From Protoeuglena noctilucae (taxonomy: Eukaryota): a DNA stretch of 64,000 nucleotides. The position numbers and the translations under genes are program-made. Location of the stretch: contig OY253668.1 of the NCBI GenBank assembly GCA_958009085.1, forward strand, positions 1,736,001 through 1,800,000, in the 5' to 3' direction. Under the pieces are notes generated by a model. The model was not told the DNA's origin and did not search any database. It saw nothing but the letters and a program-made list of their open reading frames with translations. Shown piece by piece: positions 8,532-62,534 of the stretch (position 1 is the stretch's first letter; the number at the start of each line of letters is the position of its first letter).

Positions 8532-8648
8532 GACGCACAGCACAGCACGCCTGCCCTTTTGCACCTGCACCACGTGTTAACACGAAACGGGACCGGAAAA
8601 GAGGACATGACTCGCACCCTACGCACGCCTCCTAAGCACGCCTGCCCT

Positions 8649-13030: not shown

Positions 13031-13039
13031 GTAGAGTCG

Positions 13040-16000
13040 ATGGAGGCCTCGGCCCTCGAGCCTCCCGCCCCCCCGAGCGGGGGACGCACGAGGGCCATCA
13101 GTGCGAGGTCGAACGCGCGGAAGCGGGCCCGCAGGCACTTCAACAAGCCGCTGGCGACGCTCCAGGTCGTCCGCGAGACGACATGGACCCCGCAGGCGAG
13201 GCCGGGGGGGCATGGGCGCTGGCTGTAGTCCTTGGTAGGCTCGCTTGGTCGGTGATGCGATGGCAGCGGCAGACAGCCCTTACGGGCCGGTCCTGGGAGT
13301 TGGCAGCGTGCGCGCATGGGAATGCGACGAGCGCCTTGGAAGTACGCGTGCCGCATCGTCCTTTCTGGATAGGCCAGCGACAAGTCATGCTTGTGTCTGT
13401 CTGCCACTCCCGTCGGGGCAGTTCGGCTCGCTCCAGGGCGCGTGGTTGGGCCGCGGCATGTTCGGGCACACCGCTCCCCGCCCCGCGCCCTCCTCGCAGA
13501 GCGACCTCCTCGTTCCCATCCTGAGCACGTTTAGTGCATTGCGCGTCGAGCAGGCGATGTCGGGGAGCGCCCGGGATGTGGCGCCCGGCAGCCCCAGGCG
13601 CGCTGTGGAGCTCCCGGGCAAGACCGCGAACCCGTACCTGGACGCCTCGCTCATCCGCAAGCCGCGGGGGATTCCGAAATGGATGAAGGAGCTCGGCGTG
13701 CCCGAGGAGACGCAGGAAACGCGGCGCGAGACGGGCGCAGGTGCGACGACGTGCGAGCGACGGGCTTTGCGAGGGGCCCGCGTGGCTCCGTGGAGCGGAG
13801 CCTGGGCTCTTGGACCTGAATATTCATCTTTGCTTTTAGATGCCTCACGCGGAGGCCTCGGTCGGGCGAGTCGGGGCCCAGCGGCGCCCTCACAGCTGTC
13901 GCCGCAGTCCAACTCCGCTTCTCCCGCCGTCCCCGCAGCGCGCGCCCGTTCCGCGGACGCCACGCGATCGGAGGACGGTACCGGAGCGCTGCGTCACCGC
14001 GTGGCCCGGATTCACAGCACGTACGCGCGCAGCATGGCGCCGGCGTCGGCCTCCCAGCGGGCACGCATGGCCCAGGCGCACCTCCTCTCCCACCGCGTCC
14101 CGCGCCCGCCTGCCCCCGCGAACGAGTACCTCGACCCCGCCCCGCGCCCCTCCTGGAACCCCAGCGTCGCCCCCGCCGCGGCGACCTCCGACCCGCCCCG
14201 CCGCGCGCCCCCGAACGCGGCACAGCTGGCCAAGGGACTGTCCCGCCTTAGGGTGGTCCTCAAGCAGGGCACTCCCCGCGAGCAGCGCGACGCCCTCCTC
14301 TCCTTTTTGACCACGGAGCTCCTCGTCTCGTCCCCCGCCGACCGCCTCGTTCTGGCGGAGCTGCTTGAAACGCTGCAGGACCAGAAGCCCGCGCTGCAGG
14401 TGAGACTTTTTGAGGGCGGGGGTGCATGGGATGGGTGCATGAGTGGGTGGGTGCAGGGGTGGGTGCGGGAGCGCTGCAGGTGAGGGCGGGTGTGCGTGGG
14501 TGGGGTGCGTGAGTGGTGCATGGGTGGGTGTCAGGACCACCCTCCACTCCCCGCCTCGCCTCAAACCCACTCATGCACGTCACCACCACCACTCTCCACC
14601 TCATCTCACCCTTGCCCACTCATACCACCCCCCACTCCCTTCTCCGCCCATCCAGGTCACGGCAGCCGGCGTGCTCCTGCAGCCTAACCTGCACTCCTCT
14701 TCCATCAAAGCCCTCTTTTTCTTGCACCCGCAGGTCACGGCTGCCGGCGTGCTCCTTCAGCGCGGCCTGTACTTCTCGGCCATCAAGGCCGTGTTCTCGT
14801 CCCCCGCCGCCATCCGCGCGGTGTTGGAGGAGACGAGGAAGACGCTTGAGATGCACGCAAGGGAGGGGGCGGACGGAGACGCGCCGGGGCTGGCGTGGCA
14901 CTGGTGAGGGGGGGGTTATTGGGGGGGGAGGGTGAGGGGGGGTGTGGGGGTGGTGAGGGGGGTTGGTGGGGGTGGCGGAGATGGCAGGGGTGGTGGGGGT
15001 GGCGAGGGTGGGGAGGGCAAGCAGAGCAAATGGGATTAGCAGCGTTAGCGGGACGTGGCATGGCGACAGTCGCACAATGTGTGGGTGCGAGTGCCATTGC
15101 ATGATTGCAACTGTACCCATCCCCTCTCCCTCCTCCCCCACCCCCAGGGACTCCGCGGACCGTGAGTTGTTCGTGCGTCAGTTCTCGAAGCTCAAGATCA
15201 TCCAGGTCTACCGGCAGATGAGGGACCAGATGGCCGCCATGGGGCCGCAGGGGGACCCGGCCATCGCGCGCATCGAGAGGGAGGTGAGCGTGGATATAAG
15301 GGGTGTGTGATGGGGGTGTGCATCAGGTGACCCGGTCATGACGCGCATGGGGAGGGAAGTGAGGGGTGGGGGTGGTGGTGGTGGTTGGGTGTCCATTGCA
15401 CTGATGTGCAACACCCCTCCTGCAACCCCCCCAGATGCTGCTGAAGGTGGTCAACGATAACACTCATTCCATGTCTCCCTATCAAGTCATTTCCACCCCT
15501 CCCCCCCTCGCAGGTGCTGCTGAAGGTAGTCCACAATCACACTCATTCCATTCATGTCTATCACCCCTCCCCCCCTCGCAGGTGCTGCTCAAAGTGGTGC
15601 ACGACTTTTTGCAGCAGCTGGGCGAGGCTCAGCCGGGGGAGCACGACCAGCATCAGATGGCGGCCACGCTGCTGCAGGCGGCGGCGGGGGCCAGGTCGAC
15701 GCGGCAGGCCGAGAGGGAGAAGCGGAAGAGGAGGCTGGCGGCCTTCATGAAGGCACAGGTGACGATTAGCATAGAACTAGCATATAGATTCAATGCGACG
15801 AGTGGTAGGGGTGATGGAGATGTATGGGTGATGAGTGGCATGGGTGGTAGAGGTGGTGGGGTGGGTGTGGATAGTGGGGAGCAATAGCCTGACCTGTCCT
15901 CACACACCCTACCACTCCCCATCGCAACGGGCACTACCCCACCCCACCCCACCCCACTACACCCTCCCCCCCCAGCGCGACGAGCGCGACCTGGACCGAG

Positions 16001-19000
16001 AGGAGCGCCACCGCCGCGCCGAGGAGCGCAGGCAGGCGCTGCTGGCCCAGTCAGTGGCTGAGCGGCAAGCGAAGGACGACGAACGTCGCAACGCGGCGCA
16101 CCGTCGCCGCTTGGCCGAGGCGCACCGCAGGGTGGCCGCGTTCGAGTCCGAGCGGCAGCGGCAGGTGGAAAAGGAAAAGCAGCGGCTGGCGGCGCGGCGG
16201 CAGATGCTGGAGGCGGAGCTGGGGGCGGTGATGGCGGAGGGGAAATACGAGGAGGCGTTTAAGGCCGCTTACCCCGGGCAGCCCGTGCCTAGGGGCGGGA
16301 GGGAGGGGGATGTGGGGGTTGCGAGGAGTGGGGGGGCGAGGATGGGCCAGGAGGGGGCGGGGAGGGGGCAGGGGCGGTAAGTGCATGGTGTGGGTAGGGC
16401 TGTGGGGCGTGGTATCTATATGAATGGCTCGTGAATGCAAGACTCCCGCGCTTGCTATCCATCGCTTTAGATGCCTTCACCCATCCTCCCCTCACCCGTA
16501 CCTCTCTCACCCTCACCACCCCCACCCTCACCTCACCACCCCCACCCTCTCCCTCACCTCACCACCCCCACCCTCTCCCTCACCCTCACCCCCACCCTCA
16601 CCCTCACCCCCACCCTCGCCACCCCCGCAGCCCCCCCCACGTTTTCCCCCCCGCCCCTCCTCCCCCCGGCCTGCGCCAGCCCAGCCCCGGGGCCGTGGAT
16701 GCGGTGGATGCGATGAGGGGCAAGAGAGAGAGGCGCAAGGTGCAGGAGCTCAGGAACCAGTACTCGACCAAGACGCTCATGGTGAGGGATGGTGGTAGTG
16801 TTATAAGTATAGGCATTGTTGTTGATGGTGGTGTTGTAATGGGGGCTGAGGAACCATGAAGCACTGAACAACAACCCTACTCCTCGCTCCCTCTCACGCA
16901 CCCCCACCCATACGATCCCTCACCATCCACCCAATCACCCCCCCCCCCCCCCCCCCACGCACACAGGCGAAACAAGAGGGCGTGGCGAAGCAGATCCGTG
17001 ACTTGGACAGCCAGATGCGCACGCAAGAGGCGATCATGGCCAAGGAAGCGGCACAATTGGAAAAGGCAGCGGTAGAGGCGGCGGTGGAGGGGAGGAGGCA
17101 GAAGCACGACGTGGCCATGGGGAAGGTGAGGGGTGGGAGATCTGTCTGTGTTGTATGAAATTGTTTTATATTGCATATAATATCCTATCCTATCCTATCC
17201 TATCCTATCCTATCCTATCCTATCCTATCCTATCCTATCCTATCCTATCCTATCCTATCCTATCCTATCCTATCCTATCATATCATATCATTCCATATCA
17301 TATCATCACCCACCCCTATCTCCGCTTCTACCAAATCGCAGTCGGTGGACGATGTTGCTGCCAAGGCCAAGATCCGCGTGCGGCGGGAGGTGGAGAAGGC
17401 GGACAAGCTGCAGGAGCAGTACGATCGAATGAAGGGGGAGAGGGACAGCAAGTTCAACGAATTACAAGCGTTCACGGCCGCGCAGACGTGAGTAGTAGTT
17501 GTTGTGGGGGGGGTATGGGCATGGGTGGTCGCACCACCCGCACCATCCATAGTACATACTACACACCCCGCCCCGCACCACCCATCCCTCTCCGGACATC
17601 AACTGAATTCCTCCCCTCTCCCCACCTCTCACCAACAAATCTGCACCACCCATCCCCCACCCCTCCCATCCCCCACCAGTACCATTCACCCCCCCCCCCC
17701 CCACCCCCCCCCAGCCGCCCCGGCGCCGCCCCCTCCCGCCGCGCCTTCTCAGCCCAGGAAGCCCAGGCCGCCATCACCATCCAAAGACACTTCCGCGGCC
17801 ACCGCGCCAGAGTGCGCGTGTCGGAACTGCGTTTGGCGCGGGCCAGGCGCATGGCCGAGCTGGCGGAGGTGGAGCTGATGGAGGCGAGCGCCTTGAGGAT
17901 ACAGACGGCCTATCGCGGGCACAGGTGAGGGACGGTGATGGGTGGTGTGCATGGGAATGTGATTATTATTATTTATTGGCTGGTAGTGGTGACGTGACGA
18001 TCGCGATCAAGCTGCCGCGCTTAATCTACCTCCCTTAACCCCTCTCCCACCCCTCTCACCCACTCACCACCCCACTTAACTAACCACCCCACGTCCCACC
18101 CCACGTACCACCCCCCCCCCCCCCCCCCAGGGCCCGCAAGGACGTCCGCGTGCGCCGCGCCGTGCGCCACGTGGCAGCAGAGGACGAGAAGCGGGAAGCA
18201 GAACGCAGAAAGGAGAGGGACCGATTGCAGACGGAGGCGGCGGCATTGGACGTGGCCAGCCGGCTCATCAGCGGGGACGTGTCGCCGCGGTGAGATGAAG
18301 GGGGGGGGGGGGCACACATGGGACAAGTGTAATACTGGTATTACTGTTATTACTAATAGTGGTGATTGTGGTTGTGGTGATAGTCTGCTCATCAGCGGGG
18401 ACGTGTCGCCGCGGTCAGATGAGGGAGCGGTGTGGGGGTGGTGGAACACGCTTGGAAATGTCAGTGACGATGATAGCAATAGTAGCAGTAACGACACTGG
18501 AACATAGCACAGCACTCAGCTTCTTGGTGGCTACCTCTCAGCACCCATCTCACCTCACCCATCCCACACCCCCACCCACCCCCCCCCTTCCCCCCCGCAG
18601 CAAGCCCTCCGCGCGCACCAGCGCCCGCCCCGGCAACGAGCGCAGTGGCGCGTCGTTCCCCTCCCCCCGTCTCTCTGCTGAGCCCAGCGCCGCCTCCACC
18701 CGCGCCAGCGCCCGCACCCGCAATGCTGCCGAGGAGGCATTAGACGAGGATCGATACCAGAGAGTCGAGACCGCGATGCGAGACGCGGTGCTGTATCCAC
18801 AGAAATCGCTGGATATCGGCGGGGAACGTGACGCGCAAATGCAACGTGCTATGGCGGAGCTGCTGGGGCCCGTGGGGCAAGGGGGGGGCATGGGGTTGCA
18901 TGGAGTGAGGAATGAGAGGTCTATGGTGTCGATGGGGACAGAGGAGGAGGAGGCGATTGCGGAGGTGAGGGGTGTTGTGAGGTGGGGTGGGGGTGGGTGG

Positions 19001-22000
19001 GTGCGAGGTGGGGGGGTTGTGTGGGGTGGGGTGCAGGTTGGATGGGTGTGTGTGTGCGGGTAAAGTGGGGCAGGATAAGCAGGGAGTAAGCGAGGCAGGG
19101 GCTTGCAACAGCAACAGACCCTCTCGCTATTTACAGCTCCCAACCACCCACAACCCACTTCCCGCCCACATCCCACCCACATCCCACTCACTCACCCACT
19201 TACCCCAGTCCCTCCCTTTGTGTTTCACAGGTGTTGGAGGGCGCCCTGCTGGCCGTGGAGGCCTCTCGCCTATCGGACTTTGCCCCAGAGCCATCTTTGG
19301 GCCACCTCCCCCACCCCACACACCAACACCCACACCCGGACCCGCACCCGCACCCGCACCCGCACTCGGCGTCTTCCCAACAAGAGGCGGCGGCCATGCG
19401 CATCCAGGCGGGTTTCCGAGGTATGCGCGACCGTCAGCAGGTTCAAAGAGTGATTGCGGAGAGGCAGGCCATGGTGGAGGAGCGGCTGAGGCAACTGGAG
19501 GAGGAGGAGGACGCGGCGCATGGGGCGGCGATGAGGATACAGAAGACCTTCCGGGGGCACAAGGTAAGTGAATGGAGAGAGATGTGGTGATTGATGGATT
19601 GATAGTGAGAGAGATGGTGGTGGTGGTGGTGACGTGTGTTTTGTCCCCATCACCCCCCTCACTCGCTTCGAGCTCTCTCCCCCCCAGGACCGCAAGCGTG
19701 TCCGTACTATGCAGCGCCAGCGCAAGGACGCCGCTGCCATGCGTATCCAGGCATCGTACAGGGGTCACCAGGGCAGGAAGGAGGCGGAGATGAGAAGGAG
19801 GGAGAGGGAGGCGGCGGCGGCGAGGGCGGCAGAGGCACAGGCGCGATATGAAGAGGAGGTGAGGGTGGTGATTGTGGTGGGAGTGGTAGTAGTGATGAAG
19901 GAGTGGTAGAGGCGCAGGCACGATATGTAGAAGAGGTGAGAGTGGTGATTGTGGTGGGTCACGGTGATAGACTGAGGGGGTGGGTGACGGTGGTGGGAGT
20001 GAGGATGGTGTAAATGTGAGGTAGTGGGGGAGTGCATCTCACAAGAGCCCCTCCTCGCAACCCCACCACCCCACCATCACCTCACATCACACCTACCCCC
20101 CCCCACCCCCCACCCCCTATAAACCCAGATGGCCCGCGAGCGCCGCGCGAGCGAGATCGAGAGGGAGCTGGCCGAGGACCGAGCCGCGGAGATCTCGAAA
20201 CTGCAAGAAGAGGTGGCGGCCCTGCGCATCCAGTCGGGCTACCGGGGCTGGTCGGGTCGCAAGCGGGCGGAGGAGCGCAAGAGAGAGGTGGAGTCTCAGG
20301 AGCGGGCGGCGCTGCAGATCCAGAAGAGCTACCGGGGTCACCGAGGGAGGAAGCGGGCAGACATGGTGCGGGAGCAGATGAGGAAGATTGAGGTGAGAGT
20401 GGGATGGGGGGGTTGGGGAGAGGTAGGGTGAAGGGGTGGGGTGGGGGGGACGAGGGCTGGGGAGTACGGTGGTGTTAGTGCAAAGCTGTGTTCTTGCCTC
20501 GATTTCGGGATGCATCCTGACGACCCCCACCCCCACTGCCACCCTCACTGCCACCCTCATCACCACCCTCACTGCCACTCGCACTGCCGACCCCGCTGCC
20601 ACCCCCACTGCCACCCTCACCCTCACCACCCACACCACCCTCACTACCTCCCTTCACAGGAGGAGGAGCGCTCGACGGCCGCCCTCCGCATCCAGGCGTC
20701 CTTCCGGGGATTCAAGGCACGAAAGGAGCTGGAGCAGCAGAAGGGGCCCGAGGTAGAGGGAGCTGCGGAGGGGGAGGAGGAGGAGGTGGTCGACGAGTTG
20801 GAGCGGATGAGGCGGGAGCTCGCCAAGGAGAGGGAGAGGATGCAGCAGGTGAGGGAGCTGCACACTCAGGGTAGAAAGGTCCACGAAACCGTGCGTCTCC
20901 GGGCCTGCTTTTTGCTATGATTGGATTTATTAGGTATAATCGCGTGCATTCGGCGGGTTTCCGAAGGCCTCGCGCGCCGGATCGCGTGCAGGTGCTTGCG
21001 GAGAAGCGCCGTCAGCTCGAGTACGCACGGCAGGCGAAGGAGGCCAAAGAAGCGCGGCGGAAGGAGGCTCTTTTAGAACGTCAGGCGTCGGCGCTGGCGG
21101 ACGCGGAGGAGCGGCGCCGGGCGGAGGAGCAGCGGCAGGCCGAGGAGATGGAGAGGGAGAGAGAAGAGATGCAGGCGAGGATGCGGGCCGGGGGACGACG
21201 GACGCGTGGTTGTCGATATCGTAGATGACAGACGCGGCGTCAGAGACCACAGCTTGCTCATTGCGCAGCCACCCCGGCACGTTTGGGTGGTGACATGCCT
21301 GCCCGCGCTTTGCGCGCCCCCGTCCCCCACCACTGACCGCCCCTTAATCCTCTTCCCGCCCCCGCAGCAGCGCATCGCGGCCGAGATGGGCGACCGCAGC
21401 GCCCGCGCCGAGGCGGACGAGGCGTCGGCGAAGGCGACCTCCTTGGAGCGCCTGCGTGCCGACCGCGCTCGCTTGCAGCAGATGCTAGACCAGGAGCGAG
21501 AGGCATTGCAAGAGAGGCTCGAGAGGGAGAGGGAGGAGCTACAGAAGAGGATGGCGGCGGAGGAGGCCGTCGAGGTGAGTCACGTTGGAGGGGTGGGGGT
21601 GCGGTGCGGGCGCGGGTGATGGGTGGGGGTGTGATGGGAGGTGTTGGCAAGCTGGCAAGGACGCGACACACGTCCTTATCCCTCCGTTACCACCCCTTCA
21701 CCCCCTCCTCCCGACCCCCCCAGCGCCAGCGCAAGGAGCAGGAGCGCAAGGCGAGGGCGGACACGGAGATCGAGGCGGCACTGAAGCGGTTCTCCGAACA
21801 GCTGCGGGTCAACCAGGAACATATGTCCATGATGCTGGAGCAGCTGAGCAAGCCACAGGTGAGGGTAGAGAGACATGGGGGGGCATCAAGCAGACAGCTC
21901 GACACTGGTGCATCATGGCGCCCTAGCTCTGGCCTGCTGCTCCATTACTATCCATGTCACCCGTTCTCTTTTACCACGCTTCCTCCACCACCCTATCCCA

Positions 22001-22986
22001 CCCCACCAACCACCACCCCCGCAGGCCGCCGTGGGCGGTGCGGGCCCCCTGGGCTCCATGGCCTTCTCGACCGTGCCCCTTGTCATCGGAGGAGCAGGAT
22101 CCACAGCCCCCAGCGCCGCGTCGTCGCCGGCGAGGCAGGCAGAGGCCCGGCAGGGACCCAAGGGAGCGTCACCGCTTGCTGCAAGCACAACTGCCGCTGC
22201 CACGGGGCGGTCTGCTTTCGCCGGCACATCCTCGCCCGCTGCCACGTCCCCCGCATCCACGACGGCGCCGGTGGCGGGAATGGCAACTGCGGCGCAGAGG
22301 GGACAGGCGGCGCAGCCATCGCGCACACCTGCAGGCGCACTCGCGCCCCCCGAGCCAAGGGGCGGTGCTGGCCCCGCTCCCCCCGTCGACATGGCGGGGC
22401 TGGGGGCCATTCCTGACGACGAGAAGCCGACAGATGAGGAGATCCGGGAGTACGCGACTTACCTCGGCATGGACCCAGGTGACGGTGCGGTCGGGTGGGG
22501 AGATGCATGGCGGTGGGTTCAGTGGGTTGGGTTGGGTGCGGGGCGGTCTGTGCGTGGGCGGCTGTGCCTGGGATCGATCGTTTGGGATTGCCTGCGAATC
22601 GTAGAGCTCTCATTCCCTGCGTCGGAGGGCGCGGGGGGCATTATCGATCACACAGCACTTTGCGCTTGCGCAGCATTCGCGACGTGCTCGACACCCAACC
22701 ACACACTCCCCCAAACACAAACACACACTCCCCTTCCGCAGACGACGACGCGGAGCTCCTGTACATCGCGGAATGGGCGATCATGGCGCCCGTGCCCGAG
22801 GGGTGGACCGAGCACGCCGACGCCGACGGCAACGAGTTTTACTACAACGTGGCCACGGGGGTGTCGACATACGAGCATCCGCTGGACGAGCAGTTCCGGA
22901 GCTATTTCCGGCAGATCAAGGCGCAGAAGATGGGGCAGAGCCTGAGCGACAGCCTCAAGCAGATGGCCGGGCCGGTCGCCGCGTGA
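13040..22986 (+). CDS. Large coiled-coil protein with 8 IQ calmodulin-binding motifs and a C-terminal CEP164-like WW module (~22 exons)
   Basis: IQxxx(F/Y)RG motifs at ~17780, 17898, 19402, 19537, 19746, 20228, 20318 and 20690, plus IQASYRG at ~19746 and IQKTFRG at ~19537 counted within these. C-terminus 'PTDEEIREYATYLGMDP..DAELLYIAEWAIMAPVPEGWTEH..GNEFYYNVATGVSTYEHPLD'. Start exon 13040-13195 (GC donor) is inferred. Confidence 0.75.
17182..17305. repeat. (TATCC)n pentanucleotide microsatellite degrading to (TATCA)n
   Basis: About 19 perfect copies inside intron 17126-17341. Confidence 0.95.
20530..20650. repeat. CACTGCCACCC(T/C) 12-mer minisatellite family (also 27560-27665, 39018-39090, 46733-46810)
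   Basis: The same unit recurs in the 3' half of introns in four unrelated genes. Confidence 0.8.
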
Positions 22987-23301: not shown

Positions 23302-25302
23302 TCAATCAGAGTCCTCGGCCTCCAACTCCTCCGGCGAGTAGAGCGGACAGTCAATGACGGGGAGCATCTGCCACTCAACGCGATCCATCACGGGCTTGTA
23401 CAGATTCTGCAACTTGACGACTTCACGGAACTCGGGGACGTAGACGCGGCCCACTCCCGGCGAGACGTACTTGACGAGCGGGCCCCCGAAGACCGCGCCG
23501 AACCTCCTCGCCAAGCACAGGATGCCCTCGCGCGTCGCGCTCGGAAGGAAGAGGGTGGAAAGCCCAGACCCCTTGCACATCTCCGCGACCGAAGGGAGGT
23601 CGCCAACGCACTTCGGGACGGCGTTGGCGCACTTCTCGACTCTGCACAGCTGGTAGACCATCTCCGGCATGAACTGCGACGGGCGGAGGGATAACGGATC
23701 TCGGCTCGAACGTGGGGAGGTGGGGGTTGGGGGGGGGGGAAGGACGGCGCCCTAGGCACGCTGTGAGCCCCTTTGGGTCACCGTCATGTTGACGTCCGTC
23801 ATCGTGCAGTACTTGAGCACGTGGAAGAAGGATTCGTGGGACAAGAGCTCCTCGACCCCCCCGGAGTAGTATACCATGATGCGGGCGAACTCCAACACGT
23901 GGGGGCCCCACAAGTGCCTCTTCAGCATGGCCTTGGCTTCCAGCACCGGGGCGGCACTACGGACATTCCCTCCTCCCCTGGACAGGTAGTCGTTGACGGC
24001 GGCACGCACGGAATCCAAATCGCTTGCCAGGACGAGGAGGAGGGGGACCACCTCGTCCAGCGCCTCCCCCCAGACGTCGATGACAGAGAGTATGCCCTCC
24101 ACCGTCGGGACGTTCGGGGGTCGGCACACGGAGAGCATGGTCGTCAGGCCGACCCCCGACTTGAGCACCCTACGGAGGGCCGCCCCCGAATCCGCCGCGA
24201 AGACGGGGGGCGTCGGCGCGCCGTTGGATGTCGACATGACGCGAGTGAGCGCCCCCTTCCTTTCCAGGGCTTCCATGAGCCGGTCCGTCCCCGCGACGCC
24301 GTGTGCGACGGACCACATCCTCAGGGCCGCGTGCCCGTCCGCGGGGGCGAGGGCCGTGACCTGGTCCGCGACGTCCTCGACGTCCCCCATCGGATTTGTG
24401 AGGAAGTGGAGCAGCATCGACGAGGGGTTCTTCGCCATCACCTCGAGCCTGGACACCTTGCACATGGCGACAATCGCCGCCCACCGTATCCACGCCCCGT
24501 GGGTATGGCCCTCGCCGTGCCCGCCCATGTCCACGTCCTCGACCTCGTCGTTCAGGACGGTCGGGGCCTGGGGCGCCGGCGACATCTCCTTTTCCGCCGA
24601 GTCACGGAGAGCCACGTCCGCCAGCTGAGCCATCCTCGCCTCGCGCTCGCGGTTGAGGTAGAGCTTCCTGATCGACGCCCACGGGAAGTGCTTGTAGCTG
24701 ACGAGGGCTTTATTGCTGGCGAGCGGGACTCCCCCTGCCAGGGCCGTCTGGAGGGCTGCGCGCGGGAGGGGGGGGAGTATTCGGCTCGGCGAGGGCGTGG
24801 TTGTTACGACCGAAAGCGGAGGGGGAGTGGGGGGAAGCTTCGTTGGCAGGCCTAAGAAGCCGTCTGGCGTGGGGGGAGGGTCGGAGGGACGAGTATCACC
24901 ATCGCGGCCGTGCTCGAACTCCGCGATGACCCCCGCAATGACGCCGAGACTCCAGCCGTCCGTCCTCCCCAGCGACTCCAGCAGAGGGACCCATTTACAT
25001 ACTTCCGGGGCTCTCGCGCGGAGGCCTCAGAGGTTCACGCTGGGGGGTACGAGGAGCTCCGGGACGGAGGCGAGGAACTCGGTGTGGGTCATGAACGGAG
25101 CCCGGCTGTTCTTGTCCTCGTTGAGAATGTTGGACGCGAGATGCCCCACGTGGAAGAGGAGAGCCATCTCGGCGGGGTCTCGGGGATCTGCCCATGGCGC
25201 CCCGCCGACTGCCTCGACGCCCGAGGTCAGGAGAGCTTCGCCTATCGCGCGGAGGAGGGAGAGGACTCTCTCCACGCGCGCTCGGAAGTCGGTGGTCGAC
25301 AT
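23302..25302 (-). pseudogene. Orphan 3-exon gene with an in-frame TGA at 25029-25027 (pseudogene, recoding or sequence error)
   Basis: Exons 25302-24900, 24755-23782 and 23673-23302 join in phase. The frame continues 'PPSVNL*GLRARAPEVCKWVPLLESLG'. No recognisable family. Confidence 0.5.
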
Positions 25303-25878: not shown

Positions 25879-28800
25879 ATGGGGAAAGGGGACACGGGCA
25901 AGGGCGGGAAGGCCCATAGGAAGCAGAAAGCGGGTCGGAAGGCGGAGAAGCGCAAGACGGCCGAGCTGCGCAAGAAGAAGGGCCTCTCGAAGGACGAGGC
26001 GGAGGTGAGGGACCGCGTCGGCTGCGACGGGCAGGCGCCGCCCGTCGCGCCCCGCGGCGCAGCGCTCGGGGGCGGTTGCCAGTCCGAAGCATTTGGATAG
26101 ACGAATACAGCGCTTATGTAGCGTTGTCGCAACCTAAGACGAAGTCGGTTCGCCCCCGCCGCGCCCTGCCCACAGGAGCACAAGAAGCAGCATGGCAACC
26201 CGCGGGCGTTCGCGTTCGCCGGCACCGCTCGCGCATCGTTCGGGGCCCGCGCGAAGAAGGCGGAGCGCGACCAGCGGCGCATGCACGCTCCGATGGTGGA
26301 GCGCGTCGTTGACGAGCCCCCGCCCTTTGTGGTGCTGGTCCAGGGCCCGCCAGGCGAGCCCCGCGCCGCGAATCGCGCGTTTCATTCGTCGCAATACCGT
26401 GCGAGTCGAGCCTCCGCGAATGCCCGCGGCGCTCTCGCACGCCGCGCGGCGCAGCACTCATCGCTTGCATGGCTTTCGCCCCCTGCAGGTGTCGGCAAGA
26501 CGACCCTGATCCGCTGCCTGGTGAAGCACTACACGCGTCAGAACGTTTCCGAGGTGCAGGGCCCGCTGACGGTCGTCGCCGGGCGCCAGCGCCGCCTCAC
26601 GTTCCTGGAATGCCCGACGTCGCTTCCGGCGATGATGGACGCGGCCAAGGTCGCGGACCTCGTCCTGCTGCTCGTCGACGGTTCGTTTGGGTTCGAAATG
26701 GAGACGTTCGAGTTCCTCAATCTCCTCCAGGTCCACGGGTTCCCCAAGGCGAGCTGCGAATGGGGGAAGAGACTCAGCATTGTTTGACGATTTCGTTTAA
26801 TTGCTTGGGGAGTAAGGCTGATTAACTGCGCGATGATATTACATGAGTGATTTGTTTGATTCCGCGGTCGCGAGGGCCGCAGCGTTGCATGGGCCGGGCT
26901 GCAGCGCGCTGATCAGCTCGCACGCTCCGACAACAGCCACTTCCCCTCGCTCTTATCTCAGGTGATGGGCGTGCTGACGCATCTGGACGGATTCAAGGAC
27001 GACAAGCGACTCAAGAACACCAAGAAGTTACTCAAGCACAGGTGAGGGCTCGCGTGTGCATAGGGGCAGGTCGATGTATTGTGTGTGTGAACTCATCCGT
27101 ATAACTGCTGCCATGCACCTCGCTACACGAGCACGATTTGCCTGTCGCACGTTTCACCCCCTCCCATCGCTCCGCAAGACCATCGTTTCGCCACCACCGC
27201 TTCGCCACGCAAACACGCCAACCCCAACCCCCATTCCCATCCCCATCCCCTCTCACCCTCCAGGTTCTGGGCGGAAATCTACGACGGCGCCAAGCTCTTC
27301 TTTCTGTCGGGCATCAAGAACGGACGGTATCTGAAGAGAGAGGTGCTCAACCTGGCCCGCTTCATCGCAGTGCAGAAGTTCCGGCCCCTCACATGGCGCA
27401 CCACGCACCCCTACATGCTGGCGGACCGATTCGAGGACCTCACGGGTGAGAGATATTGAGATGGGGAAATGGAGGGGGGGTGTTGGGTGGGTGCGGCTGG
27501 AGAGATGGAGTGGCGACAGTGCTGCTGATCTCGCCACCCTACGCTGCTACCCACACGCACACTGCTACCCACACTGCTACCCCCACCCCCACCCCCACCC
27601 ACACCCACACCCACACTGCTACCCCCCCTGCCACCCCCACTGCCACCCCCACTGCTACCCCCACCCCCAACCCCACACTACCAGCCCCCCCCCACCCCCA
27701 TAACCCCCTCATCTCCACCCCCAGACCGCGACCGCGTCCTCCGCGACCCCAAATGCGACCGGGACATCTGCGTGTACGGCTTCCTGCGGGGCTGCAACCT
27801 GCGACCCGGCTCGCGCGTGCACGTGGCGGGGGTGGGCGACATGGATGTAGGGGAGGTGACCGCGTTGCCGGACCCCTGCCCCCGCCCCAGCACCGTCAAG
27901 CGCCGGGGATTGGACGACAAGCAGCGTCTCATCTACGGTCCCATGTCGGACGTGGGGGGGCTGCTGTTTGACCAGGACGCGGTGTACATCACGATACCGG
28001 ACTGGAAGGCGAGTGGTGGATGAGAGGGGTTGGTGTATATGGATGGCTTTAGTATTTACATTTATTAGCAGACCAACTGCCCTCCGCTTTGCCACCCGAC
28101 CTCACCTCACGCCGCTCTAATAACCGGTCATCTCCATCGCTATTAACAACCATAACAACTGTAACAAACATATAGCTTAACTCCAATACATCTCATCCTT
28201 TCACTCAGGTCCAATTCACGTCCCGCCCCGACGGCTCCGCCCCCGGCGTGGACCGGAAGCCCGAGGGCGAGGGCGAGGCCATGGTGCGGACGCTGCAGGG
28301 GGCGGAGAGGGGCGTGGACGAGCGATTGAAAGAGTCGCGCATTCGGGTGTTCGAGGGGTCCAGGCCGGTCAAGGGGGGGGAGGTGAGGGGGTGTGGTGGT
28401 GGGGTGCGTGTGTGCGGTTGGGTAGTGGGGTGTGTGGGGGCGATGGCTGTGTTAGGAGCCATTCCTATTGTGTGGGACACTTGGTGGGATTGGTGGGAAC
28501 GCACAGTGGGTAACAGTGCATAACCACTGTGGACGTGCTCTGCCATGATGTGAAATCGAAAGCACTCACCACCTCCTCCCTCTCTCTTTCTGGCAACCCA
28601 GTGGGGCGAGGATGGCGCGGAGAGCGATGATGGAGAGTCGGGCAGTGATGGGGATGGGGCGGGGATGAGCGGTGACAGCGATGGGGGTGGCAGTGAGGGT
28701 GGCGACAGCGACAATGATGGCAAGGGTGGTGGGGATGATGATGATGGGAGTGATTATGGGGACGATGGTGGGTCCGATTGGTCGGATGATGGGCAGGTGG

Positions 28801-31800: not shown

Positions 31801-33305
31801 CCACCCCATGACGGACCTGCTCCACCACCGCGCCCCCACCAGGCGATTGGCCAAGGCACCCAAAGCCGCAGATGCCACCAAATCGCAGCGATCTATCACC
31901 GAGGAAGCCATGCGGAGGGCGGGGGTGGGGGCGAACGGGACACCCGCTGATAACGCAGCAAGCGAGGGGGGTGCGGGGGGCGGCAACGGTCGCGGTTCAA
32001 ATTCAGATTCCAAAGATGGGGGTGGGATGGACGGGAAAATGGATGGGGCGTCGCAGCATTTGCCCGCGGAGTTTCAGCCCAGTGATAGGTTCCGGGGCAG
32101 GGTGGAGGGCTTTGTATTCAAGATGGGGCCGAGGGGGCTGGGGTATTACGAAGACGTGGGGTTGGGGGAGCTGGAGCGGTGAGTGGGTTGGGTGGGAGTG
32201 TTATAGGGGAGTGCTATTGAGTGCTATTCATGGGAGTGATTTTTTACATTGTCTTGTACTTCCTGATCTACGCTATCTCGTCCCTCACCCCGTCCTCCGC
32301 CCCTCTTTCTATCTTACTGTCAACCCTACAGCCAACAATGTCACCAATGCTACTGTTCTAACCATCACCGCTACCATCACTTCCAATCCCACCCCCTAAC
32401 CTCTCCCTCCTCCCCCCAACCCCGCCCGCAGCCTCGCCCCCCCCGGCACCCCCCACGCCCACGCAACCACCGACCCCGCTGCTTGGGTGGCGATGCGGAC
32501 CGTCGCGGAGTTGCGGAGAGCGAAGGGAGAGGCCGCTCCCCGCGATCCCGACAGCCTGTACCGTGCTGTGGAGAGGGCTCCCAAGAAATTCAACCCCATG
32601 CGCGTGCCAAGGGCGCTGCAGAGGGAGCTGCCCTTCCAGTCCAAGGCAAGTGTTATCAGTTTACTATCATGAGTATTAGTAACTGTATCATTATGAATAT
32701 AGAATTCATGATTATATGTGGATGTGTCTGGATGTGACCCAATGGTCGTGCCGCAGGCGCTGCAGAGGACTGTGGTTTGTATTGTAATTGTAACTAATAA
32801 TACCTTCATTCCCGCAACTATCGCAGCCCAAGCTGGAAGCCCCCCGCAACAACAAGCGCAAGTTGCTTGACCAGCGTCGCGCGGTGGTGATGGAGCCGGG
32901 GGAGAGGAAGCTGCACACGCTCGTGCAGCAGCTCAACGCCATTCGGTGAGATGCTGGTTGTGGTAACGTCAAATATGATGCGGTGATAACGATTCTAATG
33001 ATAGTGTTTTTGGAAAACTTTGGAAATCCTTATTGTGTGCATGTTGACCTTTTTTATCATTTATAACGATGATTAATCAACAATTCCCCCATCCCCCTCT
33101 CCGCAGCAACCACAAAGCCGGCATTCGTGCTCAGCAGCAGCGTGCGAGCCGGGAGGCCTTGCAAAAGCGACTGGCAAAAGAGGGGGCAGAGAGGGAGGGT
33201 GCGGCAAAGGAGAGGAGGAAGAGGAGGTATCAAATGGATCAGGCGAAAGATAACAGGGAGAAGGCGAGGGGGAAGAAGGCAAAAGTGGGGGGTGGGGGGG
33301 AGTGA
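25879..33305 (+). CDS. BMS1: Ribosome biogenesis GTPase BMS1 (~17 exons)
   Basis: '[28 protein letters not shown]', '[30 protein letters not shown]', 'IRLKRHRW', '[12 protein letters not shown]', '[20 protein letters not shown]'. Six GC donors. Confidence 0.97.
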
Positions 33306-37805: not shown

Positions 37806-41676
<3,871 letters not shown>

Positions 41677-56576: not shown

Positions 56577-59500
56577 ATGGAAGTAGCAGAGCGCGTGCGG
56601 GCATCGGACGACCCGCACCTGATTGAGCGCTTTGAGCACGCCGTGGCGGTCGTTGAGCGAGCGGTGGCGCTCTACGGACTGCAAGGATGCTCCATGTGAG
56701 ATCGTGCGCCGCGCCTTGCTGTCCGCGCGTCGCATAGCCCTGCCTCGGGAACGCACTGTGGAAGCGCTTATTGAACTTGCTCGCCGCTCGCTCGCAGCTC
56801 GTTCAATGGCGGGAAGGACTCCACGGTTCTTCTTCACGTCGTCAGGGCCGCGCTGGCCCTCCACTTCCCCGGTATCGAGGCGCCCTTTGGCGCGAAGGGC
56901 GTCCGGGCTTTCTTCTTCCACCGCGACGATGATTTTCCGGAGGTCATCGACTTCGTGAGAGAGACGAACGAGCAGTACAAGTGCGGCGCGCGACGGAGCG
57001 GCGGCTCGTCGGGGATTCGCACATCTACAGGTCGCAGCTACCTCGCGTCGCCCCTCTTCGCCCCGCAGTGTGTCTATCTGGTCGGTGCGGACCGAGGATT
57101 ACAAGGATGGCATGGTCGGGGTGCTGCGGGAGCTGGCGACCCCCGCGGTGCTCCTCGGGACGCGGCGCGGGGACCCCAACGCGCAGGCGAGGATGTGCAC
57201 GGCCTCGGATAGATCGAAAGGGGCCTGTTTCGATGCGCATGGCCGTGAACTGGTTTCGATGCAAAGCATATTTTGCAAAGAGCCACAGCATTGGGCCAAA
57301 CATGCTACGCTCAGATGCTTTTTGTCATCAATCTGGTTCTGGGTGTCGTCTTTTGCAGGGCCAGGAGCACTTCTCCCCTTCCTCCCCCGAGTGGCCGCCG
57401 TTCATGAGGCGAGCGAGCGACTGTAGAGCGAGCGATGAGTCGTCTCCCCGATGCAAGTGCAAGTGTGCATGAAAGAGAGATTGCTTGCTTACCATGGCAC
57501 ACGCAGGGTCAACCCCATCCTCCATTGGTCGTATGCCGAGGTCTGGTCCTTCCTGCAATCCACCCAAGTGCCGTTCTGGTGATTGCTTGCATCGTCACCA
57601 CACATACTATCACGCCATCTGTGGAATGTCTATTGGTGTTACGCACTGCTCCTTGTCTCGCCACCCATGCCCCAACGAGCACCTCACCCCGCCCCCCACC
57701 CCGCTTACCCCCGCCCAGTTCCCTCTATCGCTCTGGCTACACCAGCCTGGGCCCCACGCACGCCACCATGCCCAACCACGCACTGAGGCAGAAGGACGGC
57801 AGCTACCTGCCCGCATGGCAGCTGGCAGACGGGAGGATGGAGCGGGCGGGCAGGTGAGTGGATTGCGTGTATGGCAGTAATTAGGATGCGGTGTTTGCAG
57901 ATAGTCGCGGTGCTTGTGATGCGATCCCAGCCACCATCGCCCACCCCACCACCCAAACCCCTCACACCAACACCCCCCACCCCCCTCTCCTCCCCCCTCA
58001 GAGCCTCCAAGCTCCACCCCTCCCCCTCCGGCGTCATGGGCCTGACCCGCAGCGCGGCGGCGGTGATTGTGGGCGACGAGGTGCTGGCAGCCAAAGTTAA
58101 AGACGAGAACGGATCCGTGCTGTGCCGATTGCTGCGACAGTTGGGGTGGTCGGTGGGGCGCATGGCAGTGCTGCCGGATGATGTGGAGAGCATTGCTAAA
58201 GAGGTGCAGGGGGCGATGCGTCAGTTCGCGGCCGTGCTGGTGGCGGGGGGCATTGGGCCGACGATGGACGACGTGACGGTGGAGGGGGTGGCGAAGGTGA
58301 GAGGGTGGTGGAAAGGGATAATTGCAACGAAGTGTCGTAATTAACTTACTCTTCTTATATAGTTATCCATAATTACGTGTACATTTTAGCACGTTTTATC
58401 CCCTTCTTCCTTCTACCCACCCCCCAGGCCCTCCACCGCCGCCCCGTGCGTCACCAGGGATTGGAGCGGCGCATGCGGGCGTGGTTTGGGGAATCATGCA
58501 CCGACGCGCATTTGAAGATGTGCGAGGTACCGGATGATGAGACGGTCACATTGCTGGAGGGGGAGGGGGAGGGGGTGGGTGGGGGTGGGGAGAGTGGAGG
58601 TGGGGTGGGTGGTGAGAGTGGGGAGAGTGGGGGGAGTGGGGAGAGTGGGGGTGTGACTAAGAGTGGTGGTGGTGACAGGGGCGGCGGTGGGAGTGGGAAA
58701 GCAGCGGGTGGGGATGAGGGGGTTGCACGGGGTGGCGATGAGGGGCTGGCGGGGCTGGGGGCCGGCGGGGGCGACAGGCGCGGGCCCAGCCCGTTCCCGG
58801 TAGTGCAGGTGATATTTGGTTATAATAACAGCGATAAGGTTCATATTGGTTAATATGTGAAACTATGTAATAATAATAACTATTAATTATTGTACAAGAC
58901 ATAACATGCAATCAAATACAACATTTTATTGTATAATCATCAATATAAATGCTAGTACTTCTTTACACCCCCCAGGTCCGCAACGTGTTCCTCCTCCCCG
59001 GCGTCCCCCACCTGCTGTCGCGCAAGCTGCCTGTTGTAAAGTCGGCATTGCTAGCCATGGACGCCCATGCGCCGCTGCAGCCTTTCCAGAGCACGTTGCT
59101 GCGGCTGAGGGAGGGGGACGAGACGAGGGTGGCGCCCGCACTGAGGGAGGCGCAGGAAGCGGCGGGTGAGTATGGGTGGTGGTGGAGGGGTGGTGGTTGA
59201 TGATGCATTTGTATATGTATACTATAATTTATATGCATGCTATGTTTGGTGTCTGCGGTGGGTCTGTGAGGGTGGCATTTGCACTGAGGGAGGCGCAGGA
59301 AGCGGCGGGTGGGGGGGGGGGGGGGGATAGGGGTGAGGGCGTGATGGTCTGCGATTTGCGGGGATTTCAAAGCACACATGTCTGGAATTGATATATAAGA
59401 TGAGTAAAGATGATTTATGATAAAGGAAGATAGTTTTGTATGCAATGCCAGACACCACCACCACACCTCTCCCGATCCCTCTCCCCCACCCCCAGGCTGC

Positions 59501-60009: not shown

Positions 60010-62534
60010 TCACGTTCCCTCTTTCTGCCTTCCCAGCAACCCCCCGTGCCGCTTGGGAGCACCGCGCTTTGCCCCCACACCCANNNNNNNNNNNNNNNNN
60101 NNNNNNNNNNNNNNNNNNNNNNNNNNNNNNNNNNNNNNNNNNNNNNNNNNNNNNNNNNNNNNNNNNNNNNNNNNNNNNNNNNNNNNNNNNNNNNNNNNNN
60201 NNNNNNNNNNNNNNNNNNNNNNNNNNNNNNNNNNNNNNNNNNNNNNNNNNNNNNNNNNNNNNNNNNNNNNNNNNNNNNNNNNNTTGACTATAATTACTCA
60301 CCAACTATTTATTTATCACAATATCAATAAAACAGCAATCGCTCGCCTTGCTCGTCGTACGCCCCCTCCCACGGCTCCTCCACCACCTCCCCATTCACCA
60401 CCGCCGTCCGCCCCCCCCCTCGGTCCCCCCTGTTTACTGCCACCCGCTCCACTGCCAGTGTTGTGCCAGTGTTGGCGACCGAGGGCGGCAGCGGGGGCGG
60501 GGCGTGGATGGCGCGACCGTCCAACAGCGATAGGGCGGGCAGTGCGCGTGCGATGGCTGCGGCGTAAGCGGCTGGGTCGGACTGCGGGTGGGGGAGGATA
60601 AGAAGGGTGGGGTTTGATATGGGATTTTATATTTAAATAATATTTGAGTAATGATGGTGGTGATATGGGTGCCGAGTGATGGAACAGCGGTCCATGGCGT
60701 GAGTGAGGAGGCACAACCGTTAGGTACTAAAATAACTAATTTATATATTATATAATCAAACATACATCATGTGATAACCATCACCCTCTCACCTGCTCCA
60801 TGGGGTTCCCCGCCCCCGTCACTTCGGCCAGCTCCGTGCACCCCTCGATGGCCCACAGAAAGTGACTCAGATCACGGACCATGTTGCTGGCCATGTCTAG
60901 AGTGTCGAGAGATGGGGCGACGTCTGGGGGGAGGGGGGGTGGGGGATGGGGTCAAGCGATTAGTTGATATATATAGCTCAAAGCTTTCTAGTAAGCAAAG
61001 CGACGTTGGGTGAGCAGACGAAAAAGCACGGAATGAATGGGTTTGCATCTCATCTGCTATCTTTAGCAAACATATACGCCCAACCCGTCCGTCATGCGCC
61101 CAACACCATCCCTTCACCCTCACCCGCAAGCCTGGGCAGTTTTGTGACGTGGTTCTCTGACACGTCGATCTCCACCAGTTGGGGAAAGCACGTTCCCGAC
61201 AGGCACTCGATCTCCGAAAGGTCGTTCCGGGGGGCGCGGAGGACTTCCAAAGTCGCAGCGCAGGACAGCAGGGGGCGGAGGGTGGGGACGCGGTTGCCAT
61301 GCACCGAGAGCTCCCTGGGATGGGGAGAGTGGTGACGGTAGTATGCTATGAATTTGCACAGTAAGTATGAGTAACTATGATACGGATTGAGCAGCTGCAC
61401 ATTCCCATCTCAAGCAGTCCCAACTGCACACCCCCACCCATCCCCCCCACCTGAGCTTGTTGAGGTGCGACACGTCACTCAAACTGGCAATCGCGTTGTC
61501 CCTGAGCGACAGGTCCTCGATTCCCGGCAGCAGACGCAGGCCACGCAGGGACGTGAGGCCGCACCCGTCCATCGCCAACTGACTCAGCTGCGGGGGGATA
61601 CGAAACGACTGGAAGGTGACTGGCAGATGGCGTTAGAACCTAGAACAACAGCATAGCACGATATCATCAGTCCCACAGCCTTTGCTCAGGTTACCACCAC
61701 AGCACGACCCCGCCACCACCCCACCCACAAGCACCGCACCTGTGGCAGCTCTGGGATGCCGTCCAATGAAGGTATCGTGTTGCCAGAGAGGTCCAGGGTG
61801 CGCAGGGATCGGATCTGGGGGAGGCCCTTCATCGACGTTAGGCGGTTGGACGCCAGAAAGAGGTTCTGCAGCATGGGAAGCTGCGACCGGAGGGGGGAGG
61901 TGGGAGAGGTGAGAGGCATGCTAAAACTAACTCTGAGGATGGTACAGCCAGCAACGTATGGTATGGTACAGCCCGGCAGGCGCGGCCAGCCTTTGCTTTG
62001 TGCTGCACCTATCCACCCGCATATCCACTCGCCTTGGGCAGTTCCGCGAGGCTGGCGAGATGATTGGAGTACAGCACCAGCTCCCTCAGCTGTGTGGCGG
62101 AAGACAGCGACTGGAAGCTGGCAATCGCGTTCGTGCTGAGATCCAGCGTGCGAAGGTTAGCTGCTCCGGCGAGCTCGGGAGGCACGGCCGACAGCCCGCA
62201 GTCGCGCAGTGCCAGGGAAGGGGCGCGGCTCAGGTCCTGGCCTTGCAGGGCGGAGGCGACGGGGGCGGAAATCTCGACACTACGCTCCGATGCTGCGGGG
62301 GGGGAGTGGGTGGGATAATTTAAGCGATGAGGTGAAGGGATGTAATGTGGATGAGACTTGTTTGCGAGCGGTGTTTCGGAATGGTGGGAGCTACGAGAGA
62401 ACCAGCAGTGCCGGGCCTGTGGGCTGACCTCGCTTGGTGGGAAGGGGCAGCGCGCGTGGCTTCGAGGATTTGGACGACGCCACGGAGATTGCGGAGCTCC
62501 GCTCGGCCTCGAGCGCCGCTCCTTTCGTCGACAT
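60010..62534 (-). CDS. Leucine-rich-repeat protein (SDS22-like LRRs); 3' end uncertain, crosses gap
   Basis: Repeated LxxLxLxxNxIxxL: 'LRELVLYSNHL', 'LQNLFLASNRL', 'LRTLDLSGNTI', 'IEDLSLRDNAI', 'ELSVHGNRV', 'IDVSENHV'. GC donors at 62032 and 60346. Confidence 0.8.
60084..60283. other. Assembly gap (200 N)
   Basis: Run of N. Confidence 1.

Follow-up and report, generated by a model that had tools for sequence, protein, structure and literature searches.

What sets the base composition of a gene's sense strand in step with its splice sites, and can such a wave reach into codons? This question is raised by a 64-kb stretch of the Protoeuglena noctilucae assembly (GenBank GCA_958009085.1, contig OY253668.1, positions 1,736,001 to 1,800,000 of the forward strand), which we call the window and number from its first letter. 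Its DNA is nuclear and comes from a marine green alga of high GC content. An initial annotation had pointed to a sawtooth of G-rich donors and C-rich acceptors that extends into codons, and had proposed that the pre-mRNA could fold back on itself or else that the pattern reflects mutation linked to G-quadruplexes, R-loops or chromatin. Here we describe this wave, follow it into the exons and weigh what may have produced it.

A GC-skew wave phased to splice sites

The wave can be seen without any gene model. The variance of GC skew in steps of 60 nucleotides (nt) was 5.7 times the binomial expectation over the whole window, with 8.0 times the expectation in 14400-34400 and 3.0 times in 1-14400. 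As a comparison, two contigs from unrelated eukaryotes gave 1.3 and 2.4 times the expectation; these are distant metagenome loci (46-53% identity, GC 0.52 and 0.41) and were used only for this contrast. An absolute skew above 0.6 occurred in 13% of the 60-nt steps here and in 3% of those in the contrast contigs. The autocorrelation of the skew rebounded at 360-480 nt, which is the period of one exon plus one intron; the genes are intron-dense and their exons and introns are each about 180-190 nt long.

Intron borders came from two sources. Contigs of four metatranscriptome runs were aligned to 14400-34399, giving 15 joints that were listed and 24 further joints beyond these. Among the 15 listed, 14 were canonical, comprising 12 GT..AG joints (one on the minus strand) and 2 GC..AG joints. 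The remaining one skips 1208 nt from 24213 to 25422 with CG..GA ends; it was present in three RNA runs with only 21 nt on its shorter side, is unexplained and probably unreliable, and was set aside. RNA cover is patchy upstream of 18.3 kb. The remaining genes were modeled with our own 13-state hidden Markov model and Viterbi parser, which used codon usage, a donor matrix (-3 to +6) and an acceptor matrix (-6 to +1). Its intron emission was symmetric in G/C and in A/T, so that skew was unable to guide the borders. Retraining brought the parser to 97 introns, among them 13 of the 14 confirmed by RNA, though the RNA-confirmed set was also part of its training. It missed the RNA-confirmed intron 23674-23781 and merged the in-frame intron 26354-26488 into an exon. 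For metagene profiles we kept 95 of the 97 introns, dropping two that were shorter than 60 nt, held an N or had no flanking exons, and per-intron counts were made on the 89 predicted introns of at least 100 nt. All counts below refer to this one window and mostly to these home-made models.

A G-rich start combined with a C-rich end (5' skew above 0, 3' skew below 0) was seen in 12 of the 14 RNA-confirmed introns (binomial p = 3e-6) and in 68 of the 89 predicted introns, with one intron reversed (binomial p = 4e-24). A strong form of the pattern, with skews above +0.3 and below -0.3, was present in 51 of the 89, and between 14400 and 34400 the pattern was found in 33 of 35 introns. Counts of short runs agree with this. 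At least three GGG were found in the first 40 nt of 42 of the 89 introns, where at least three CCC occurred in a single one; at least three CCC were found in the last 40 nt of 58 introns, with the opposite arrangement once. Overall, the last 60 nt of introns consist of C 0.46, T 0.21, A 0.21 and G 0.11.

In the metagene of 95 introns, the skew was +0.63 in the first 10 nt, about +0.35 at +30 to +60 and about +0.1 by +70 to +100, and it ranged from -0.3 to -0.66 across the last 100 nt. The sign thus changes within introns, with a mid-intron skew near -0.10. Exons start at a skew of about 0 and end at +0.25 to 0.35. The same shape was obtained on the sense strand from 60 plus-strand and 35 minus-strand introns. 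Blocks became stronger with increasing intron length (rho 0.52) and weaker with increasing intron GC (rho -0.31). These data show a skew that is phased to splice sites, and the intron part of the initial annotation, including its sense-strand polarity in both orientations, was borne out by the profile anchored on donors and acceptors that it had suggested. Its remark that introns often have an AT-rich middle applies to 30 of the 89, in which a 40-nt stretch has a GC of at most 0.35, but not to the remainder. Some of its examples also need changes. The intron given as 18964-19230 carries the pattern but starts at 18965. For the intron given as 16376-16679 the parse prefers an acceptor at 16630, and RNA decides for neither. 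The exon given as 15976-16375 has a G-rich tail that lies outside RNA cover, since the contigs of three runs depart from the window sequence at 16240. At that base all three (runs X7, X8 and X12) diverge into the same unrelated letters, which may reflect a strain variant, an alternative junction outside the aligned stretch or an assembly chimera.

Silent sites follow the junctions

We examined 69 internal exons of at least 90 nt that lie between introns of at least 60 nt; shorter, terminal and N-holding exons were dropped. From the first to the last fifth of these exons, the share of C at third positions fell from 0.44 to 0.26 and that of G rose from 0.41 to 0.61, giving a change in third-position skew from -0.04 to +0.40, with the shares of A and T flat. 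The last third exceeded the first third by +0.38, with 52 exons up and 15 down (Wilcoxon p = 2e-7). Second codon positions shifted weakly (p = 0.011) and first positions showed no shift along the same 69 exons. Among the 10 exons with both borders confirmed by RNA, third positions changed from 104 G and 106 C in the first third to 162 G and 54 C in the last (Fisher p = 6e-8), with a rise in 9 of the 10. Pooling of 14 internal exons supported by Pfam gave a change from 187 G and 227 C to 310 G and 112 C (p = 6e-17). The initial annotation had described exons that open with C-ending and close with G-ending codons. The gradient in G and C with relative exon position is thus present, but exon starts are not C-rich overall; C equals or outnumbers G there at third positions only.

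All eight fourfold boxes move towards G along the exon, with the CCG share rising from 0.03 to 0.52 and the CGG share from 0.12 to 0.58. By contrast, two-fold boxes are unmoved, both for pyrimidines (C/(C+T) 0.84 to 0.82) and for purines (G/(G+A) 0.88 to 0.92). The gradient is therefore an exchange of G and C only, at constant GC content of third positions (GC3). Near-silent and amino-acid choices shift along with it. The ratio of CGN to AGR codons for arginine went from 105:11 to 45:44 (p = 1e-10), the share of NAY among NAY and NAR codons from 0.42 to 0.29 (p = 0.002), and that of Asp from 0.47 to 0.31. A logistic fit gave terms of -1.1 for the acceptor side and +0.57 for the donor side, the decay length being some 60 nt, so that synonymous codon choice depends on the distance to the splice junction. 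That GGG rises from 0.24 to 0.86 of GGG plus GGC, and that arginine switches codon family, within an exon of 200 nt would, if found genome-wide, count among the clearest examples of coding sequence that is shaped by its splice junctions. Gene finders and codon-optimisation for such algae should weigh the position of a codon relative to introns.

The exon edge is also related to the intron next to it. Its skew co-varies with the neighboring intron block, with a rho of 0.51 at acceptors and 0.29 at donors. At donors, fourfold sites are near-continuous with the intron (about +0.44 vs +0.5), and at acceptors there is a step (intron -0.4 to -0.66, fourfold sites about -0.25).

Codon effects near junctions in animals are small and mostly favor purine-rich enhancers at both exon ends. 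Work by Parmley, Warnecke, Hurst and others reportedly attributes such bias to splicing enhancers. The algal exons resemble the animal case in that silent-site usage varies with distance to the junction. They differ in that the effect is large, has a direction between the two exon ends, exchanges G and C at constant GC3 and co-varies with the intron block. That splicing signals affect codon usage near junctions is stated in the introduction of PMC4684703, a paper in which the term skew is absent.

Such data from exons also bear on a simple doubt, namely that the wave is an artefact of wrong gene-model borders or that the introns are copies of one introner or transposon. RNA supports 14 introns only and the parser made the two errors named above. 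However, RNA-confirmed introns and exons show the pattern when taken alone, and the annotation-free variance of skew is high. Introner elements and transposon-derived introns are known from Micromonas and other algae, and as with those, the host here is a marine green alga whose numerous short introns carry repeated sequence, a few of them sharing low-complexity similarity over 70-117 nt. Unlike introners, these introns form no family of full-length similarity: when the 95 introns were compared all-vs-all by blastn, 6 pairs matched under the low-complexity filter, none full-length, and only low-complexity matches of at most 117 nt appeared with the filter off. No terminal inverted repeats were found across the 95 introns, and the sequence they share is a 12-bp minisatellite unit only. 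A transposon origin would also not bias silent sites in flanking conserved exons. We reject an introner or transposon family, and regard an artefact or repeat-family origin of the wave as a whole as highly improbable.

Repeat arrays, strand-sorted motifs and predicted folding

The intron blocks are largely tandem arrays, with 95 rows from Tandem Repeats Finder (TRF) in the window. GGGGTG, GGTGGG and GGGTGG abound in the 5' blocks. In the 3' blocks CCACCC occurs 87 times where composition predicts 39.6, and CACCCC, CTCACC, CCTCAC and TCACCC are likewise abundant, the last three with about 34 occurrences each against 11.5 expected (for CTCACC, 35 vs 11.4 from composition). Single bases that space G-runs are T in 71 of 104 cases (A 18, C 15), and those that space C-runs are A in 119 of 180 (T 42, G 19). 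The use of A in this position runs counter to expectation for a pyrimidine tract. Across k-mers, the 5' blocks agreed best with the reverse complement of the 3' blocks (Spearman 0.56), less well with the plain complement (0.38) and least with identical k-mers (0.13), and CCTCAC(C) is the reverse complement of the donor consensus (GGTGAGG). The two blocks are therefore the same duplex motif in opposite orientations, and the loose complementarity noted in the initial annotation is real at the level of motifs.

One unit, the 12-mer CCACCCTCACTG, has 20 matches in the window at no more than one mismatch, where 0.91 are expected. In its C orientation it lies in the 3' halves of four introns that belong to four different plus-strand genes (20527-20653, 27631-27654, 39023-39082 and 46741-46795), and in its G orientation near donors or within G-rich coding sequence (28691-29044, 31037, 40080-40163 and 59264). 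The orientation of the unit relative to the gene depends on nearness to an acceptor or a donor. Arrays at 27544-27723 have low-complexity similarity with introns 20393-20659 and 46582-46876. The window also holds 126 canonical G-quadruplex (G4) motifs, about 2 per kb. Within introns, all 22 sense-strand motifs fall in the first half, 16 of them in the first quarter, and 42 of 43 template-strand motifs in the last half; exons carry 39 sense-strand and 5 antisense-strand motifs. Human splice junctions are reported to be enriched in G4 motifs (Georgakopoulos-Soares et al., 2022, PMC9065059), and as in the human data given there, the algal motifs, by raw counts, cluster within about 100 nt of splice sites. 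The non-template bias at the donor side is present here. At human acceptors both strands are described in that paper as enriched (3.0-fold and 2.8-fold), whereas the algal acceptor halves have their motifs almost entirely on the template strand.

Could this organization arise at the level of DNA? Slippage would expand arrays that had begun in the G-rich consensus of donors and the C-rich tract of acceptors, and a strand-asymmetric field of mutation or repair, tied to R-loops, G-quadruplexes or transcription, would extend some 60-100 nt over the junctions, with purifying selection leaving only silent sites in exons to respond. The arrays themselves, the dispersal of the 12-mer over several genes and the dense, strand-sorted G4 motifs are consistent with this, as is the preference for a T spacer on whichever strand is G-rich. 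Exon-edge skew that tracks the adjoining block and is near-continuous with it at donors would also be expected, and so would a pattern that varies by gene and region, is dispensable for some introns and scales in amplitude with intron length. Other features fit less well. Exons exchange G and C without a change in A or T, which differs from the signatures of deamination; the skew changes in a step at the acceptor; and sense-strand polarity in both gene orientations points to a cause linked to RNA or transcription rather than to plain slippage. We know of no transcription-coupled process that reverses its sign within about 200 nt. Taken together, a mutational origin is possible but seems on the unlikely side.

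A different explanation gives the blocks a function as a pair. The G/U-rich 5' zone would pair with the C/A-rich 3' zone in a helix that brings the donor to the branch and acceptor region and that would itself be the selected feature; CCUCACC units may also pair with the 5' splice site. Closure, taken as at least 6 pairs between the first 25 and the last 35 nt, was predicted in 51 of 87 introns, as compared to a proportion of 0.31 in full shuffles. For 74 introns the minimum free energy (MFE) averaged -66.3, whereas their dinucleotide shuffles averaged -62.3 (mean z -1.0, p = 1e-6). Real introns had 18.2 pairs that join their first third to their last, and these shuffles had 10.1. End-to-end helices were predicted for two RNA-confirmed introns, 19859-20128 (MFE -112.2, z -1.94, equaled by 7 of 200 shuffles) and 32179-32431 (z -1.64, equaled by 12 of 200). 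The reverse-complement fit of the k-mers, the complementary T and A spacers and the stronger blocks of longer introns are what a helix would call for. However, shuffling within blocks of 25-30 nt left closure at 0.61 and pairs between the thirds at 19.2, and with 30-nt blocks the MFE remained near the real value (-64.1, z -0.57). Because block shuffles close equally often, fold-back follows from block composition and motif class. In these models, it is a physical consequence of block composition and not of matching within each intron. The excess of 5'-3' pairing that the initial annotation had proposed to look for is thus present over dinucleotide shuffles but absent over block shuffles, and its suggestion that folding juxtaposes the splice sites has support from predicted closure to the same extent.

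Duplexes between the 60-mers at the two intron ends gave a similar result. Cognate ends paired slightly better than non-cognate ends (-34.9 vs -31.4 kcal/mol, percentile 0.40, p = 8e-4) and better than block-shuffled ends (-33.0, p = 0.045), yet 60-mers from exon middles paired more strongly still (-40.3 kcal/mol). Only 9 of 89 introns carry an exact complement of their own first 6 nt within the 3' half, and an internal inverted repeat at E<0.01 was present in only 10 of 95, few of which join both ends. With this small cognate advantage and equal block shuffles, we reject intron-specific complementarity. There are further difficulties for a bridging helix. G and C zones alternate along the pre-mRNA and could pair with equal likelihood over an exon or over an intron; U1 would have to contend with any helix that covers the donor; and some introns are spliced without blocks. 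In the part of the LCAT study that deals with intron 4 of this human gene, C motifs were swapped for G motifs and splicing stayed normal, a result that spoke against a stem-loop in that intron (PMC2481429).

There are precedents for bridging. Teleost (AC)m-(GT)n introns are described as bridged by structure (Lin et al., 2016, PMC4691745), a precedent that the initial annotation had cited correctly, and the same source gives 16% of structured human introns as having GGG at the start and CCC at the end. The algal introns are like both of these in carrying complementary simple repeats at opposite ends with a predicted bridging helix, and like the human GGG/CCC class as presented there in the modest gain in stability over shuffles. 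They differ from the teleost introns in their units, which are G-runs with T and C-runs with A or CTCACC-type repeats and not (AC)n/(GT)n, and, as far as sequence and predicted folds tell, in their fixed polarity (G 5', C 3') and a skew that reaches exons. For the teleost class, splice-site pairing is reported to depend on the repeats, and splicing to proceed independently of U2AF2. On balance, we consider it unlikely that a bridging helix is the selected function.

Folding was also examined at the splice sites themselves. Removing the skew from the flanks lowered the predicted unpaired probability from 0.42 to 0.34 at donors (p = 3e-4) and from 0.55 to 0.39 at acceptor regions (p = 2e-9).

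Possible selection on splicing signals and the wider locus

The explanation that we favor, at a probability of about 0.45 and hence tentatively, is that the skew wave consists of selected auxiliary splicing signals read on the pre-mRNA. As a rule, a donor lies in a sense-strand zone of about 60-100 nt that uses G and avoids C, and an acceptor in a zone that uses C and avoids G. In introns these zones are formed by short tandem arrays, with T-spaced G-runs 5' and A-spaced C-runs 3' (CCACCC, CCTCAC and CCACCCTCACTG). In exons they take the form of silent or near-silent choices such as GGC to GGG, CCC to CCG, CGC to AGG and Asp to Glu. Where U-rich tracts are disfavored in the genome, donors may be marked by a G-run zone, and the branch and acceptor region by one of poly-C, as signals for intron definition. 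RNA-binding proteins would read the zones single-stranded, the skew would keep each site locally unpaired, and the two zones of an intron could zip together as a by-product or an aid.

What the sequence shows is the composition, its phasing to splice sites, its confinement to silent sites in exons, the symmetry of the motifs and, as predictions, accessibility and closure, whereas selection, any protein readers and any effect on splicing are inferred. Selection is favored because the polarity follows the sense strand in both gene orientations, because the sign flips inside each intron, because exons exchange only G and C at constant GC3, unlike the usual C-to-T strand asymmetries, and because k-mers are enriched beyond composition. 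It is also supported by the loss of predicted accessibility at both sites upon removal of the skew and by a vertebrate precedent for G-rich elements in GC-rich isochores.

Other observations weigh against this explanation. Two of the 14 RNA-confirmed introns lack the full pattern, which makes the blocks facultative: the one at 20849 has neither block and the one at 23674 is C-rich at its 3' end without a G-rich 5' end (Table 1). A third RNA-confirmed intron, 32646-32826, has weak blocks (+0.17/-0.12). The region 1-14400, known from the parse only, is weak, with 7 of 16 introns patterned and an exon gradient that is up in 5 exons and down in 5. The growth of block strength with intron length would also be expected from simple repeat expansion. 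Predicted last exons are still rich in G at third positions at their ends (0.75) with no donor downstream; this is from 11 last exons which, with 10 first exons, served as controls and are all unverified models. Exonic G-runs usually silence splicing in vertebrates. In addition, swapping G and C at fourfold third positions of the flanking exon, about 12 sites per 80 nt, left predicted accessibility unchanged (0.425 vs 0.424 at donors; 0.550 vs 0.553 at acceptors). Because this swap changes nothing, the exon part of the wave has no demonstrated structural role. The idea that silent bias at exon edges keeps splice sites unpaired is rejected, with the real sequence higher at 40 of 80 donors and 40 of 80 acceptors.

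McCullough and Berget are said to have worked on G-triplet enhancers of short vertebrate introns. In short GC-rich human introns, G-rich and C-rich intronic enhancers are reported to act additively, and a stem-loop model was tested and rejected for one of them, LCAT intron 4 (Murray et al., 2008, PMC2481429). G-rich elements are described as having taken over from U-rich ones in GC-rich vertebrate isochores (Voelker et al., 2012, PMC3606033). The algal introns are like the short GC-rich vertebrate introns portrayed in these sources in having G-runs after the donor (42/89) and C-runs ahead of a weak, U-poor pyrimidine tract (58/89). They are unlike them in that the blocks are tandem arrays of 50-150 nt in most introns of the region, strictly polar and with an A spacer, and in that the skew, as known here from sequence alone, continues into flanking exons at silent sites. 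In the human case, as PMC2481429 presents it for the introns concerned, G and C motifs are interchangeable and not strictly separated by position. We found no description of a phased G/C wave reaching codons in an alga in the open-access literature, supplements excluded. The architecture is a strong, partly new variant of a known organization of intron ends, unusual both in its strength and in reaching coding sequence.

A more far-reaching proposal, which we hold to be doubtful, is that the alga uses a skew-based splicing code. Alternating G and C zones would replace U-rich signals, and anti-donor minisatellites near the branch, whose unit CCUCAC(C/U)G looks like the 5' end of a U1 adapted to GUGAGG donors, could pair with the 5' splice site of their own intron. 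Up to about 60 nt from every junction, such a code would dictate codon choice and some amino-acid choice (Asp vs Glu, and the Arg codon family). The locus offers a natural system for studying how introns are recognised where the genome is GC-rich and intron 3' ends are poor in U. Structure, protein binding and mutation can here be told apart as sources of G-run and C-run intron ends, a question that is open for human GC-rich introns.

Table 1. Coordinates of features in the window; paired skews are those of the 5' and 3' intron ends on the sense strand.
Feature	Position	Strand	Support and details
Strong skew-wave region, intron-dense nuclear genes	14400..61920	both	Skew variance, metagene, per-intron counts
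Intron with G/T-rich 5' block and C/A-rich 3' block	18965..19230	+	Joint in 3 RNA runs; skews +0.94/-0.79
G-rich tandem arrays	18962-19061		At 5' block of intron 18965-19230
Internal exon with IQ motif (Pfam)	19231..19563	+	RNA-confirmed; third positions G11/C17 in first third, G28/C5 in last third
Intron starting GTGAGGGTGG	19859..20128	+	RNA-confirmed; skews +0.93/-1.00; predicted fold closes ends
Intron with extreme blocks	20393..20659	+	RNA-confirmed; skews +1.00/-0.94
CCACCCTCACTG minisatellite (10.6 copies) within the 3' half of intron 20393-20659	20527..20653	+	Unit is reverse complement of donor-like CAGTGAGGGTGG
BMS1 intron	32179..32431	+	RNA-confirmed; skews +0.77/-0.94; first bases predicted paired with bases just 5' of acceptor
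Intron without G or C block	20849..20991	+	RNA-confirmed; skews +0.03/+0.03
Intron with C-rich 3' end and no G-rich 5' end	23674..23781	-	RNA-confirmed; skews -0.33/-0.53
Intron between kinase-domain exons, G/T-rich up to acceptor	10435..10588	-	Parsed; skews +0.52/+0.52; Pkinase profile spans flanking exons
(CTCACC)n array, periods 6 and 26, the C block of the intron starting 16377	16506..16624	+	TRF
Arrays of C-runs with A spacers, periods 6, 12, 24 and 54, filling 3' half of BMS1 intron 27446-27724	27544..27723	+	TRF
G-oriented array of the 12-mer family, 10 copies of GTGGGGGTGGCA, close to the 5' part of a plus-strand gene	40054..40177	+	TRF, 12-mer matches
Conserved MoCF-domain exon of FAD-synthase-like gene, C-ending codons first, G-ending last	58003..58296	+	Among the 14 Pfam-supported exons
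N gap	36112-36311		One of two 200-N gaps

The assignment of the window to a marine green alga agrees with several observations. Its GC content is 0.52-0.69 per 2 kb and about 64% overall. Marine metagenomes and metatranscriptomes contain 26-86% of sampled window words, and the sequencing runs of one organism contain 98%. A BMS1 exon is 80-82% identical to volvocine algae, the best named relatives being chlorophytes, and an exon for an oxysterol-binding protein (OSBP) is 66% identical to Pedinophyceae sp. YPF-701; none of the named proteins matched was near-identical. Single-exon Pfam matches are to ordinary nuclear families, namely oxysterol-binding protein, bestrophin, a protein kinase with beta-helix repeats and an IQ/WW protein, as well as BMS1, Omp85, FAD-dependent monooxygenase, BRO1, alpha-SNAP, FAD synthase and LRR.

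Some minor observations concern individual regions. In the parsed models of 1-14400 there is a second class of introns, with a GC of about 0.65, shorter and with weak or absent G and C blocks; the kinase gene in this region is G-skewed throughout and has G/T-rich acceptor regions. A near-perfect (TATCC) array of 21.8 copies at 17181-17289 fills the middle of an intron. The 1047-nt open BMS1 stretch at 28602-29648 is of low complexity, rich in Gly, Asp, Glu and Ser and very high in G skew; it was parsed as a single exon and may hide in-frame introns. A 121-nt tandem duplication (1.8 copies, 84% matches) at 35759-35980 lies in a C-rich stretch of a minus-strand gene region and adjoins the N gap in Table 1. 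At 47997-48103, a 37-nt unit in 2.9 copies repeats, on the minus strand, which is that of the gene, the donor-like CAG/GTGAGGGG.

The donor consensus of the window is G/GTGAG(G), where the slash marks the exon-intron border. GC..AG introns account for roughly 1% of introns in most eukaryotes and their share is far higher here, with 21175-21367 and 32646-32826 being 2 of the 14 RNA-confirmed introns and a GCGAG start occurring in 14 of the 89 predicted introns.

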